Shown in pieces: positions 1,217 to 39,854 of a DNA stretch of 64,000 nt. The number at the start of each line of letters is the position of its first letter. The stretch's first letter is position 1. The DNA is from Escherichia coli. Its GTDB lineage: Bacteria; Pseudomonadota; Gammaproteobacteria; Enterobacterales; Enterobacteriaceae. Below the pieces are notes generated by a model, which saw only the letters and a list, made by a program, of their open reading frames with translations, was not told the DNA's origin and searched no databases. The position numbers and the translations under genes were made by a program. The stretch lies in NCBI RefSeq assembly GCF_013122565.1, contig NZ_CP053258.1. One strand, given 5' to 3'.

Positions 1217-2652
1217 TTTGCCTCCGATGCCAGTTCGTCAAAGACGTCTTTGCCGAGGGAGCATTCCGGGCAGAGGAAGTTATCCGGGACTTCACTCCAC
1301 GGCGTTCCTGGCGCAACGTCCTGCATTGGCTCGCCTTTTGCCGGATCGTAAATCCACTGGCAGACGCTGCACTGCATCCGTGGGCCGAGGTCAGCCGTCG
1401 TGGTGGCAGAGGTTTCTTCTTTAACTACCGTATTCACCGTGCTCTGCGGCAGAGGCGCGAGCGCCCACTGACGGGCGATTTCGCGACCGTGTTCACGGCA
1501 TAACTCCAGAGCGTCCTGGTCTGGTCGCCATTTCGCTTTCAGGCTAAGCGACATTTCGAAACCCGCATCCTGCAGGCGCGTGGAAAGACGATCCACCGCA
1601 CCGCCGCTCCAGCCGTGAGAGCCGAAAGCACTGGCGCGTTTGTTACGGAAGCGTAATCCGGTCATCTCCTCCACCAGCCCGGCGATTTTCGGCATCATCA
1701 CGTTATTCATCGTCGAAGTGCCGACCAGCACGCCTTTTGAGCGGAAGACATTGGTCAGGATTTCGTTTTTATCGCTTCGGGCGACGTTGAAAATTTTCAC
1801 CGCCACGCGTGGGTCGGTTTCCGCAATCCCTTGGGCGATAGCGTCAGCCATCATGCGGGTGTTATTCGACATGGTGTCGTAGAAAATGGTGATTCTGTCT
1901 TCCTGATAATCAGCCGCCCATTTCAGGTACAGCTCGACAATTTGCGTCGGGTTATCGCGCCAGACCACGCCGTGAGAGGTCGCTATCATATCGACTGGTA
2001 AGTTAAAGCCCAGGATCTCGGTAATTTTCGGCGTTACCAGGCGGCTGAACGGCGTAAGGATATTGGCGTAGTAACGCTGGCACTGCTCAAAAAGCTCCGT
2101 CTGATCCACTTCATCGTTGAACAGATGCTCGTCGCAGTAGTGCTGACCGAAAGCATCGTTACTGAACAGCACCGCGTCGCCTGTCAGGTAAGTCATCATG
2201 CTGTCCGGCCAGTGCAGCATTGGTGTTTCGACAAAAATGAGCTGTTTGCCGTTGCCGATATCCAGCGTGTCGCCAGTTTTCACCACATTAAAATTCCACT
2301 CCGGATGATGGTGATGACCATTTATCGAGTCGATAGCGTTGGCAGTACAGTAGATCGGCGTATCGGGAATTTGTGCCATCAGTTCGGTCAGCGCCCCGGC
2401 GTGGTCCTCTTCTGCATGGTTAATCACGATGTAATCGATATCCGCCAGATCGATTTCATTACGCAGGTTCTGCACAAATTCGCGGCTGAATTTATGGTCG
2501 ACGGTGTCGATCAGCACGTTTTTTTCTTCGCGGATGAGGTAGCTGTTGTAGCTGCTGCCGCGCAGCGTTTTATATTCCGTGCCGTGAAAATCACGCACTT
2601 CCCAGTCACGTTGACCCACCCAATGAATGTTATTTTTCACCACAATAGACAT
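1213..2652 (-). CDS. norV: anaerobic nitric oxide reductase flavorubredoxin
   Basis: 479 aa ORF with metallo-beta-lactamase-like HxExDH motif, flavodoxin-like segment and C-terminal rubredoxin CxxC...CPxC motifs; divergent from norR. Confidence 0.93.
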
Positions 2653-2698
2653 AGCAACCTCAATTTATTCAGCGTGTTCTAAAAAGATATCTTGCTAA

Positions 2699-2716
2699 TT
2701 GCAGATTGCGTGCCAT
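2699..2716 (-). promoter_or_regulatory. sigma-54 (-24/-12) promoter of norVW
   Basis: Minus-strand sequence TGGCACgcaatCTGCA matches the TGGCAC-N5-TTGCA consensus with correct GG/GC spacing, about 50 bp upstream of the norV start. Confidence 0.6.
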
Positions 2717-2770
2717 TTTTTTATCTGATTGTTTTTACTCTATAAATAAAATTATGCTCATTAATGAGTA

Positions 2771-2826
2771 GTCAAAATGACTATCAATCAAATGGTCGAT
2801 ATGACAATATCTATAGTCAAATTGAC
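2771..2826. promoter_or_regulatory. three NorR enhancer sites (GT-N7-AC inverted repeats)
   Basis: GTCAaaaTGAC (2771-2781), GTCGataTGAC (2795-2805), GTCAaatTGAC (2816-2826) in the norR-norV divergent intergenic region, upstream of the sigma-54 promoter. Confidence 0.65.
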
Positions 2827-2838
2827 AGTGAGGCAAAG

Positions 2839-4353
2839 ATGAGTTTTTCCGTTGATGTGCTGGCGAATATCGCCATCGAATTGCAGCGTGGGATTGGTCA
2901 TCAGGATCGTTTTCAGCGCCTGATCACCACGCTGCGTCAGGTGCTGGAGTGCGATGCGTCTGCGTTGCTACGTTACGACTCGCGGCAGTTTATTCCGCTT
3001 GCCATCGACGGGCTGGCGAAGGATGTACTCGGTAGACGCTTTGCGCTGGAAGGTCATCCACGGCTGGAAGCGATTGCCCGCGCGGGTGATGTGGTGCGCT
3101 TTCCCGCAGACAGCGAATTGCCCGATCCCTATGACGGTTTGATTCCAGGGCAGGAGAGTCTGAAGGTTCACGCCTGCGTTGGTCTGCCGCTGTTTGCCGG
3201 GCAAAACCTGATCGGCGCATTGACGCTCGACGGAATGCAGCCCGATCAGTTCGATGTTTTCAGCGACGAAGAGTTACGCCTGATTGCCGCGCTGGCGGCG
3301 GGAGCGTTAAGCAATGCGTTGCTGATTGAGCAACTGGAAAGCCAGAATATGCTGCCGGGCGATGCCACGCCGTTTGAAGCGGTGAAACAGACGCAGATGA
3401 TCGGTCTGTCGCCAGGTATGACGCAATTGAAAAAAGAGATTGAGATTGTGGCGGCGTCCGATCTCAACGTCCTGATCAGCGGTGAGACGGGAACCGGTAA
3501 GGAGCTGGTGGCGAAAGCGATTCATGAAGCCTCGCCACGGGCGGTGAATCCGCTGGTCTATCTCAACTGTGCTGCACTGCCGGAAAGTGTGGCGGAAAGT
3601 GAGTTGTTCGGGCATGTGAAAGGAGCGTTTACTGGCGCTATCAGTAATCGCAGCGGGAAGTTTGAAATGGCGGATAACGGCACGCTGTTTCTGGATGAGA
3701 TCGGCGAGTTGTCGTTGGCATTGCAGGCCAAGCTGCTGAGGGTGTTGCAGTATGGCGATATTCAGCGCGTTGGCGATGACCGTAGTTTGCGGGTCGATGT
3801 GCGCGTGCTGGCGGCGACTAACCGCGACTTACGCGAAGAGGTGCTGGCAGGGCGATTCCGCGCCGATTTGTTTCATCGCCTGAGCGTGTTCCCACTTTCG
3901 GTGCCGCCGCTGCGTGAGCGGGGCGATGATGTCATTCTGCTGGCGGGGTATTTCTGCGAGCAGTGTCGTTTGCGGCTGGGGCTCTCCCGCGTGGTATTAA
4001 GTGCCGGGGCGCGAAATTTACTGCAAAACTACAGTTTTCCGGGAAACGTGCGCGAACTGGAACATGCTATTCATCGGGCGGTAGTACTGTCGAGAGCCAC
4101 CCGCAGCGGCGATGAAGTGATTCTTGAGGCGCAACATTTTGCTTTTCCTGAGGTGACGTTGCCGCCGCCAGAAGTGGCGGCGGTGCCCGTTGTTAAGCAA
4201 AACCTGCGTGAAGCGACAGAAGCGTTCCAGCGTGAAACCATTCGCCAGGCACTGGCACAAAATCATCACAACTGGGCTGCCTGCGCGCGGATGCTGGAAA
4301 CTGACGTCGCCAACCTGCATCGGCTGGCGAAACGTCTGGGATTGAAGGATTAA
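2839..4353 (+). CDS. norR: sigma-54-dependent NO-responsive transcriptional activator
   Basis: GAF-type N-terminus, AAA+ sigma-54 activator core (GETGTGKE Walker A, GAFTGA-like loop), C-terminal HTH. Start placed at ATG 2839 (MSFSVDV...); the ORF-track start at 2764 would run through the NorR binding sites. Confidence 0.9.
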
Positions 4354-21107: not shown

Positions 21108-21140
21108 GCCGGGCAGGTGACACCACCGCCCGGTTTTTTT
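21108..21140 (+). terminator. luxS intrinsic terminator
   Basis: gccgggcaggtgacaccaccgcccgg hairpin followed by ttttttt; the T-run overlaps the stop codon of the convergent minus-strand gene at 21139. Confidence 0.75.
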
Positions 21141-22251
21141 ACCTTTCAATCACCCGATACTCCACGCTATGTGCTTCATCAGGTTGAGGAACTTCCAGCC
21201 TTGAGGCCATCCGCAGCACGACCGCTTCAGGAACTGCATACTCGCGTCTGGCATTTTGCTGCTTCCATTGCGTCCATGGCACTTCCAGATAAACGATTTT
21301 TACTCGTGCGCCGTAAGCCGTAAACAGACTGATGAGCTGGCTACGCAGCTGGCGGGTAATGTTCGTTGCATTCCAGATGAACGGCTTTTTCTGGCGTAAA
21401 AAAACGCGTGCCTCTTCTTTTGCCTGTTGCACAATACGCCCGGTGGCGGTTTTGTCGTCCGGACTGGCATTGATTCGCCGCCGCATATCATCAAGGCTGA
21501 TAACGTCAATTCCCTGGCACTGTTCACTGATATAGCGATCTTTGCCCATACCCGGTAAGCCACACAGCAAAATAACCTCAAAAGGTTCAGCCCCCCAGGG
21601 AACAAAATCAGGAGAACTTTGCTCATGAGTCAGGTAGTGCCAGCGTGCGGAATCAGAAACGAACGGGCGCACTTTTCCCCAACACTGTTGCTCCTGGCAA
21701 AACAGCTCGAACAGATCGATGCGTTCCAGCATTGATTGCTGATCCGGGCTTTGGCGACCAAGCAGATCGGCACGAGCAAGCAAAGCGAGCAGACGCGTGT
21801 CGATGCGCATTGCAGCCGTGAGCAGCAAACGCTCCGGTTCCGGACGTTCCAGTAACCACAGCGGTAACCCATGCAGACGCACCAGCGCAACAATTTGCTC
21901 GCGTAGCACGAACGGCGTAGGGATATCGCGCCATAAAATTTGTCGGGCCGTCAATTCGCCCCGCCGAGCATGGCCAGGCGACTGAATACGTCCGTTTTCC
22001 TGCACGGTAGTGCTGCGCTTTTCAACATCATGCAATAACGCCGCCGCCCATAAAACTTCCTGCTGTTGAGCGGGGAGTTGCTGGAATTCTGGCAGAGTAA
22101 CGAGGGCGTTCAGCACCATTTCGGTATGCACGCCGACGTCGCCTTCACCATGATGCTCCGGGTCTTGTGGCGTGTGATGCATCTCCTCAACCCAACTGAA
22201 ACGCTGGAGTAGTGTCGACCAGCGTTTATCGTCGGTAAGCTGCCAAATCAT
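21139..22251 (-). CDS. two-domain protein: N-terminal HD-family phosphohydrolase fused to C-terminal P-loop polynucleotide-kinase-like domain (putative RNA end-healing enzyme)
   Basis: 370 aa. N-terminal half carries the HD signature H..H ([11 protein letters not shown]), HD (ALLHDVEKR), H (SPGHARRG), D (LARADLLGR). C-terminal half carries Walker [13 protein letters not shown], then SLDDMRRR and [10 protein letters not shown]...[13 protein letters not shown]...VPEAVVLRM, which parallels the T4 Pnk kinase-domain pattern as I recall it. Start overlaps the upstream gene by ATGA. Confidence 0.7.
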
Positions 22252-22955
22252 GACTGTTCTCCATAAGCGAACTCATGGGCCATCCGCGCCCGTTGCCAGT
22301 GTCGTTTCCAGTGCACGGTGGTTTTGACATGATTTTTGCGCACATACTTGAAGACGTTATGCGAAAAGTCAGCGACGGAAAACGCATCACGATTCCGGCT
22401 GACAATGCCTTCCAGCGTACAGGGTTGCCCGGTTTGTGTATCCCAGGGATCGAACGCGCCGCGCGCATTGGTCAGTGCCAGAAAATCACGTTGCCAGCTT
22501 TTTTCATCATTCCCCGGCTGCGGACCGGAGATTTCGGGAACGCAGGGGAAATCAAACAGAGCGGCGTAAAACTGCACCTCTTCCCAGCTCAGCCACATAT
22601 CCTGGCAGCGAACGGCAAACAGGTAAAAGTCCTGTTCCAGCGCGCGGTATTCAATGGAATGAACGGCGTAGAGATTTTCACCAAACAGTTCCAGATCGCC
22701 GAGATCGTTTTTCAGCAGTTGCCAACGCTGGCGAATTTTATAAGTCCATGCCGACTGCGTAGGCGCAGCATGGGAACGGGCAAACACGCCGTAGCGGTTA
22801 AGGCAGTTATTTTCGCCGTCGAGTTTTTCTGTGTGCACCAGTTGCGCAATGGCCTGTAAATCCTGCCAGTAATCGGCGTTAATGCGGTCATCGCTGGTGG
22901 TGCCAGGGGAGAAAGGATAATGCCAGGTTCTCCCGTATTTTCGTTGGGTATTCAT
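22248..22955 (-). CDS. small nucleotidyltransferase of the ATP-dependent RNA ligase type (putative RNA sealing enzyme)
   Basis: 235 aa. Candidate covalent-nucleotidyltransferase motifs: motif [10 protein letters not shown] (KxDGxN), motif IV-like TLEGIVSRN, motif V-like lysine pair [10 protein letters not shown]. Translationally coupled to the HD/kinase gene. Confidence 0.65.
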
Positions 22956-38211: not shown

Positions 38212-38878
38212 GCTAATGCTCCTTAATAAAAGCGTAATGGAATGTTAATGGAGATGAAAGCAGTGGATCTCATTGCCATCTGCATTTTCGCATAGCGTAT
38301 ATCGCTGGCTATGACTAATCAATTAGTGAAAAATTTTTATTTAAACTGTTTTTGTAGATAAAATATTCCGTAACGGCGCGTTTTTTGTACATTGTGGATT
38401 TTTACATGCCGATATGGTTTATTTTCAATTGAATCAATTAGATATGACCTTGCCTTTAATTACACTAATGAAAGTTTGGGGGTGAGGTAACGCTATAAGC
38501 GTAGAGAATTCGGTGTATGTCGTGACCGGGTCATTTTCAGCATTTTTTATGCCAGAAAATGTACATTGACAGCAGAAAGCACCAGTGAGGGGTGTTTCCA
38601 TTTATTCGGTTAAATTGCATTTTTATTCATTTTTGTTTTGTCAGGCTTGCGGAATTAGCGAGCAGAGAGCGCCGCTCTGCTCACAAATAACCTAAATTAC
38701 TCATCAAAATGGCTAATATATAATCTTGAAATTATTCTGAGAGTTTAAGAAAATAACAGCTGAAATAATCTCGCGCAGGACTGTAAATAGATTAAATTTT
38801 GTGGAAATATAATAAGTGATCGCTTACACTACGCGACGAAATACTTTTTTGTTTTGGCGTTAAAAGGTTTTCTTTATT

Positions 38879-39329: not shown

Positions 39330-39854
39330 TCAAGCTCGTTGGTTCCACGGCATCTTATCTAACAACCTTGCCATCCCACAAAAACCGCTAATTCCTGCAA
39401 ACAGTAACCCGGCACCAACAAAGCCGCTTAATAAGAAGAAACCGCTATTTACGGTATAACCCAGTATAACGCCGATTAATATTAAACCACCCGCAGCGAT
39501 CTGCACCTGGCGCATTAACGGCAAGGGTTGAGATTTATTTACCGCTACTGGCAATCCTGCTTTTTTCCAGCCATCAATCCCATCTTCGAGTAAAAAGATT
39601 TCTGCGGGGGCGGCAATCACTGCTAATTTATCGGCGTTATTACTGGTGCGTTTACCTGCCTGGCAGTGGAATATAATTTGCTCGCGACGTAATTTAGCCG
39701 GGAGACCTGACTGTTCCAGCACGGATAATGGAGCCAGATCTGCTTCAGGAATATGTTCACGAAGATATTCATCAGCGTCACGAATATCGATTAACTTTGC
39801 ACCGCGTGCGATTAATTTTTGTGCATCATGCGGCGAAATGGTTGTCAAAGCCAT
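39330..39854 (-). CDS. ygaP: rhodanese-domain inner membrane sulfurtransferase
   Basis: 174 aa; rhodanese active-site loop CQAGKRTS, C-terminal TM helices. Confidence 0.88.

Follow-up and report, generated by a model that had tools for sequence, protein, structure and literature searches.

Introduction

The divergent alaE and stpA genes of Escherichia coli encode the L-alanine exporter and an H-NS paralogue, respectively, and the region between them is already known, its regulators H-NS, StpA, and Lrp having been described for strain K-12. Genomic SELEX demonstrated that H-NS and the RNA polymerase holoenzyme bind the stpA/alaE spacer of K-12 (PMC3946193), and a stpA promoter fragment is bound by StpA (PMC2814080). 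Furthermore, stpA is derepressed in hns mutants, and StpA and H-NS are subject to negative auto- and cross-regulation (PMC2814080, PMC7544231, PMC4668568), and deletion of hns raises stpA expression 4.5-fold (PMC2814080, PMC3686432, PMC7544231). Lrp is needed for stpA expression in minimal medium (PMC4668568), and a passage in PMC6801825, citing Ihara 2017, states that Lrp together with L-alanine or L-leucine activates alaE. Ziegler et al. used stpA-alaE as a model locus and reported that Lrp gives a ChIP peak in the spacer and a second one within the ygaP ORF; removal of the ygaP peak caused a >5-fold loss of Lrp-dependent stpA activation from a distance of >1 kb, and atomic force microscopy (AFM) revealed that Lrp bridges the stpA-alaE fragment and that leucine abolishes this bridging (PMC10127797). 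H-NS binding, repression of stpA by H-NS/StpA, Lrp occupancy, bridging, and the leucine effect have therefore been shown in K-12 by others, and all occupancy data refer to the K-12 allele, which is 95% identical to the spacer studied here.

Lrp-dependent promoters with multiple or paired peaks, such as those of the dadAX, oppA, and ilvIH types, resemble this locus in that conserved AT-rich blocks lie upstream of a weak promoter, and in that the paired ChIP peaks of K-12 stpA-alaE are approximately 1 kb apart, with bridging and occupancy both sensitive to leucine; a conservation period of ~34 bp near alaE is an additional, weak point of likeness. By contrast with these promoters, the Lrp consensus is matched no more often than expected by chance here, and one Lrp patch is shared by two divergent genes with opposite leucine logic. 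With H-NS-silenced, autoregulated promoters of nucleoid-protein genes (the hns promoter; proU in the same window) the locus shares curved AT-rich upstream DNA, repression by H-NS and by the gene's own product, and H-NS binding in vitro; however, no high-affinity H-NS motif cluster was detected in the alaE-stpA spacer, the AT-richest conserved DNA here belongs to the neighboring gene alaE, and stpA is activated through bridging by Lrp, for which simple displacement is not enough.

In the present study, the alaE-stpA spacer was analyzed in a 64,000-nucleotide stretch of E. coli DNA (the window). The flanking genes and their orientation are the same as in K-12 MG1655, and the promoter-proximal elements are identical or nearly so. 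The anatomy, composition, curvature, and conservation pattern of the spacer, together with the lack of RNA or ORF signals, are established here. We consider with considerable confidence that the spacer is the composite alaE/stpA control region already characterized in K-12, i.e., a substrate of H-NS/StpA that is bridged by Lrp and has a center under low constraint.

Extent, Composition, and Curvature of the Spacer

Open reading frames in the window place alaE and stpA side by side, as does RefSeq in both K-12 and CP151004 (the closest complete genome), with no RefSeq feature between them; therefore, the spacer is exactly 38212-38878, or 667 bp. The original prediction, which was derived from the sequence alone, had described a 667-bp AT-rich non-coding gap with A/T tracts between divergent genes, and its boundaries are exact. 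It had also called the gap much longer than is typical here, which is borne out by the collinear CP151004 annotation: the spacer ranks second by length among 57 spacers with a median of 68 bp, and among divergent spacers flanked by protein genes the next in length measures 255 bp. The sole longer spacer (751 bp) lies beside tRNA-Ile at an island boundary.

Two other segments of the window were noted during this comparison. The segment 52989-58497 is 93.4% identical to the closest complete genome, as against 96.8-98.3% elsewhere in the window, and coincides with the tRNA-Ile (ileY) island, which includes a gene for a DUF5507 protein and a ypjA-like adhesin pseudogene. The minus strand of 21139-22955 carries ORFs of 370 aa and 235 aa between luxS and emrB, the RefSeq counterparts of which in CP151004 are named "ATP-binding protein" and "RNA ligase family protein." Since luxS and emrB are presumably adjacent in the K-12 gene order, this segment looks like a small accessory insertion.

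The GC content of the spacer is 0.349; that of the window is 0.504, and the remaining spacers taken together have 0.406. The AT-richness is unevenly spread: GC content is 0.28 in the stpA-proximal 88 bp, 0.33 in the alaE-proximal 239 bp (with 38 A/T tracts per kb), and 0.38 in the 340-bp center, which is near the composition of ordinary spacers (0.41). A/T runs of at least 4 nt number 22 in the spacer (33 per kb), compared with 10.9 per kb in the remainder of the window, and composition-matched shuffles of the spacer yield 10.2 ± 2.8 such runs; therefore, base composition alone is insufficient to explain the tracts. Curvature was predicted with our own wedge-model script, using dinucleotide angles after Bolshoy et al. 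(1991). The spacer averages 23.8, whereas the median for the window is 15.4, placing it in the top 0.24% of 667-bp windows, and the spacer folded alone yields 24.8 compared with 18.7 ± 1.9 for its own shuffles. A curvature prediction had been named as a check when the region was first singled out, and its outcome agrees with that proposal. Column-wise conservation divides the spacer into three parts, namely the alaE module, a variable center, and the stpA core promoter and leader. The coordinates of these parts and of the elements within them are collected in Table 1.

Table 1. Features of the alaE-stpA locus, in window coordinates (strand "." denotes features without assigned strand).
Feature	Position	Strand	Basis or remark
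alaE (L-alanine exporter) CDS, 149 aa	37762-38211	-	ORF; RefSeq name in K-12 and CP151004
alaE module, comprising leader, core promoter, and, over ~150 bp upstream, conserved AT-rich blocks	38212-38450	-	Conservation
alaE Shine-Dalgarno sequence AAGGAG, 7 nt before ATG	38219-38224	-	AGGAG unchanged in all 30 species aligned
CAG-N9-CTA motif overlapping the alaE -10	38293-38307	+	12/15 to Lrp consensus YAGHAWATTWTDCTR
Predicted alaE sigma-70 promoter: -35 TTGATT (38322-38317), 17-bp spacer, -10 TACGCT (38299-38294)	38294-38322	-	
Most conserved upstream block	38348-38369	.	GTTTTTGTAGATAAAATATTCC in E. coli; ..GTCGATAAAATACTCTG in most genera
Variable center, 340 bp, indel-rich	38451-38790	.	Divergence and poor cross-genus alignment
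GC-rich inverted repeat, core GAGCAGAG-N7-CTCTGCTC	38654-38688	.	E. coli lineage only
Predicted stpA sigma-70 promoter: -35 TGGAAA (38802-38807), 17-bp spacer, -10 TACACT (38825-38830)	38802-38830	+	
stpA Shine-Dalgarno sequence AAGG, 11 nt before ATG	38864-38867	+	
stpA (H-NS paralogue) CDS, 134 aa	38879-39283	+	ORF; RefSeq name in K-12 and CP151004
ygaP ORF	39330-39854	-	K-12 counterpart holds the distal Lrp peak bridged to the spacer (PMC10127797)

Allele and Distribution

The K-12 orthologue of the spacer (NC_000913.3, 2798496-2799163, 668 bp) is collinear with it and 95.2% identical. The two alleles differ by 31 substitutions and 1 indel, which are concentrated at 38370-38720, and the published functional data are those of the K-12 allele. 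The flanking genes are 96.5-99.3% identical to those of K-12 at the DNA level (alaE, 99.3%; stpA, 99.0%), and the StpA protein is 100% identical to K-12 StpA. Of 5426 complete E. coli genomes, 5419 carry the spacer sequence, in a single copy, and among the matches listed no annotated feature underlies the spacer. Identity to the allele of the window is ≥99% in 1 of these 5419 genomes, 95-99% in 4806, and 90-95% in 610, and this allele is thus uncommon in E. coli. E. coli QL57EC (NZ_CP172108.1), one of two genomes among the 5419 that cover <80% of the spacer, carries IS1X2 in place of the alaE 5′ end and the alaE-proximal half of the spacer (locus positions 2424-3842), and its stpA-proximal 342 bp are intact.

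For comparison across the family, an AlaE search with one genome per species provided 80 loci in Enterobacteriaceae. In 58 other species, stpA lies divergently upstream of alaE, and the intervening spacer measures 475-789 bp with a GC content of 0.31-0.43, compared with 0.47-0.57 for the loci as a whole. The long AT-rich divergent spacer is therefore an old feature of Enterobacteriaceae.

The alaE Module

The alaE-proximal part of the spacer is distinguished by the conservation of its upstream blocks (38289-38446), which are 80-100% conserved in 74 species outside Escherichia and, across about 15 genera, exceed the conservation of the AlaE protein itself (80-90% identical across genera). Nineteen of the 74 species are without stpA at the locus, and the blocks are equally kept in them; therefore, the blocks belong to alaE. 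In species without stpA, the nearest neighbor, where identifiable by a naive ORF call, is located ~270-450 bp upstream of alaE, indicating that alaE retains a long upstream region there too. Several of the genera without stpA at the locus, Kosakonia among them, have at this distance a small co-directional ORF with the start MFSVGDIVQPR.GG.KLKV.EV, and the genera with this ORF (loci L047, L051, L057, L059, L064, and L067) still keep the alaE upstream blocks.

The predicted alaE promoter is conserved: of 80 species, 79 have the pattern TTGnnn-17-TAnnCT upstream of alaE, and the 17-bp spacing never varies, whereas shuffles yield 0.7 of 80. The -10 element ends 61-86 nt before the ATG in the 80-species set, and transcription in the window would be expected to start near 38287, with a leader of ~75 nt. 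The AG and CTA ends of the CAG-N9-CTA motif overlapping this -10 are kept in essentially all 80 species, and its inner positions vary without covariation. A 4-bp hairpin over the -10 (AGCG-ATATA-CGCT) was considered and rejected, its arms not being kept complementary across the 80 species; the variation of the inner positions without complementarity therefore argues for a protein site rather than a hairpin. We infer from its likeness to the consensus that this site is recognized by Lrp.

The most conserved upstream block (38348-38369) matches the Lrp consensus at 11-12 of 15 positions on the minus strand, as judged by eye, and is 1-2 mismatches from the H-NS motif TCGATAAATT. The further conserved blocks are AAwTTTTTATTT, GTCGATAAAAT (TAGATAAAAT in E. 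coli), GTTTTTTGT, and AATCAAT. Two exact copies of the 10-mer AATCAATTAG, at 38317-38326 and 38432-38441, 115 bp apart, are both located within blocks conserved across genera; this 10-mer is not over-represented in the whole window, and the proposed alaE -35 falls, on the other strand, within the first copy. Conservation in the module has a period of ~34 bp that ranks at approximately the 99th percentile under a lenient permutation test; this does no more than hint at an Lrp array. Given that Lrp activates alaE and produces ChIP peaks at the K-12 locus (PMC10127797, PMC6801825), the conserved alaE blocks probably constitute such an array.

A more elaborate arrangement is conceivable but rather doubtful, in which the blocks would form a nucleoprotein array of fixed geometry with a period of ~33 bp, occupied by Lrp alone or by Lrp in competition with H-NS on GTCGATAAAAT. 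Through the site overlapping the -10, a single complex could then either repress or activate, and the long-range bridging that controls stpA would be anchored on this array as well. Separately and with the same reserve, the TATAAT at 38719-38724 might act in Escherichia as an upstream stpA promoter yielding a long-leader or non-coding transcript under unsampled conditions.

The Variable Center

The center of the spacer has a length of 145-459 bp across genera, contains many indels, and aligns poorly. Its divergence from K-12 (6.5%) is close to that at the 4-fold sites of six flanking genes (5.9%), which is consistent with little or no constraint on its sequence. The excess of A/T tracts in the center is inconsistent across species (median z of 0.7), and this erratic excess, along with the near-ordinary GC content, weakens the case for a selected "landing pad" role. 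The center may act only as a spacer or a landing pad, and its sequence, if not its length, is probably dispensable. An origin of the center from mobile or foreign DNA was rejected, since the "plasmid" matches proved to be mislabeled chromosomes and the single phage match is a 1.7-kb fragment.

Parts of the GC-rich inverted repeat (38654-38688) are retained in Escherichia sp. MOD1-EC7003, and the repeat is absent from E. albertii, E. whittamii, and the two other divergent Escherichia genomes compared. It was rejected as a terminator or conserved element on account of its restriction to the E. coli lineage and the absence of a T-run on either strand. Three islands within the center are kept in all seven Escherichia sequences, namely GCGTAGAGAAT (38498-38509), TTCAGCATTTTTTATG (38537-38552), and AAATGGCTAATATATAATCT (38706-38725), the last of which includes a perfect TATAAT (38719-38724) conserved within Escherichia. 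These islands could be sites for lineage-specific factors or an upstream stpA promoter.

The stpA Core Promoter and Leader

The stpA-proximal segment (38791-38878) shows 0 differences from K-12 in 88 positions. The pattern T[G/A/T]Gnnn-16/17-TAnnnT, a loose one given without a shuffle baseline, fits 57 of 59 species, in which the stpA -10 ends 32-54 nt before the ATG, and the stpA transcript would be expected to start near 38837. A further TATAAT (38808-38813), found mainly in Escherichia, Salmonella, and some Citrobacter, lies inside the spacer of the predicted promoter and could be an alternative, competing -10 for stpA, with a start at 38819.

Search for a Small RNA or Small Protein

The region had also been proposed as a possible source of an unannotated small RNA, and this suggestion found no support in the searches conducted here. 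On the locus, a permissive Rfam search gave a best score of 20.7 bits against a gathering score of 54, and at gathering thresholds no match was obtained in 20 orthologous loci. Neither the stpA nor the alaE leader, nor the upstream blocks kept across genera, showed a consensus structure or covariation in RNAalifold analysis (zero or trivial pairs), and folding of the center compared with shuffles was not significant on either strand (plus, z of +0.10; minus, z of -1.55). Promoter-like matches in the spacer are at the level of chance (3 versus 3.4 in shuffles), and the sole terminator-like hairpin inside it (38577-38597) is weak and unconvincing. Furthermore, the published Term-seq data of K-12, covering LB at OD 0.4, LB at OD 2.0, and M63, include no 3′ end and no Rho-termination region between 2798243 and 2800533 (Adams et al., 2021; PMC7815308). 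The same data place a 3′ end inside the stpA CDS at ~39131 (K-12 2798243), and the stpA terminator 3′ end falls at ~39326 (K-12 2798048), in a 46-bp gap with a GC content of 0.65 that is shared with the convergent ygaP.

An independent non-coding transcript from the spacer, starting at the TATAAT of 38719-38724 or at TTGAAA-17-GAAAAT (38726-38754), is accordingly quite improbable. Such a transcript could draw on several promoter-like hexamers, of which the TATAAT is kept within Escherichia, and on the weak hairpin and the GC hairpin of the E. coli lineage. However, the GC hairpin lacks a U-tail and most other Escherichia species do not have it, promoter-like matches are no commoner than in shuffles, and the Rfam, alignment, folding, and Term-seq results given above all count against it. 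A small protein encoded in the spacer is less probable still, to the point of being hardly credible: seven ORFs of 25-55 aa are present, but six of them are interrupted by stop codons or devoid of a start in K-12 or other Escherichia, and the remaining one uses the TTG within the alaE -35 as its start, with no ribosome-binding site evident by eye.

Regulators and the Division of Labor Between the Two Genes

The Lrp consensus YAGHAWATTWTDCTR has 2 matches with ≤3 mismatches in the spacer, one of them being the CAG-N9-CTA site at 38293-38307, compared with 3.3 in shuffles, and the H-NS motif TCGATAAATT is not enriched in it, with 1 match at ≤2 mismatches compared with 1.5 expected; this single match lies in a conserved alaE block. 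Since neither scan exceeds chance in such AT-rich DNA, the assignment of individual blocks to individual proteins is not proven by sequence. These results bear on the original prediction that the region is of the kind bound and bridged by H-NS/StpA and may contain autoregulatory nucleation sites. That it is DNA of a kind to which these proteins bind is supported, given the AT-rich and curved DNA, the H-NS SELEX site in K-12, and the binding of StpA to the stpA promoter, but Lrp was omitted from the prediction, and the protein directly demonstrated to occupy and bridge the K-12 locus, by ChIP double peaks, AFM, and the loss of stpA activation upon removal of the ygaP site, is Lrp rather than H-NS or StpA (PMC10127797). 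Likewise, autoregulation of stpA is published, whereas the nucleation sites expected for it are not reflected in an enrichment of the high-affinity H-NS motif.

The principal rival explanation, which we regard as possible but clearly the less likely, is that the length of the spacer serves mainly H-NS/StpA nucleation and bridging in the autoregulation of stpA, i.e., that the spacer is a stpA silencer. The AT-rich, A-tract-rich, and curved character of the DNA, the H-NS SELEX site within it, the 4.5-fold increase in stpA expression in the hns mutant, and the autoregulation of stpA are all in keeping with this explanation. However, the best-conserved 240 bp persist in 19 species that have no stpA there and nevertheless keep a long upstream region, and the center, the candidate silencer nearest stpA, diverges neutrally and has a near-ordinary composition. 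The unenriched H-NS motif and the demonstration of bridging by Lrp at this locus further argue against a silencer as the main reason for the length.

Under the favored explanation of a composite control region, a weak sigma-70 promoter (TTGATT-17-TACGCT) would drive alaE from the alaE-proximal 240 bp, and Lrp, most likely as an oligomer spread over the conserved AT-rich blocks (~150 bp), would activate it when alanine or leucine is abundant; otherwise, alaE would be mildly repressed, probably via the consensus-like Lrp site over the -10. The stpA-proximal 90 bp would provide a core promoter (TGGAAA-17-TACACT) and a short leader, and the 340-bp center would be little-constrained spacing DNA between the two promoter modules. 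H-NS/StpA would form filaments on this curved DNA, rich in AT and in A-tracts, and so silence stpA, resulting in its auto- and cross-regulation. Lrp bound in the spacer would relieve this silencing, and activate stpA in cells grown in minimal medium, through its bridge to the Lrp patch in ygaP, a bridge that leucine dissolves.

Perspective

The comparative value of these results is modest: the conserved DNA of the spacer is that of alaE and survives the loss of stpA, the middle third is approximately neutral, and both core promoters can be placed. For studies on Lrp bridging or stpA silencing, the anatomy singles out the alaE-proximal 240 bp and the stpA-proximal 90 bp as targets for mutation.
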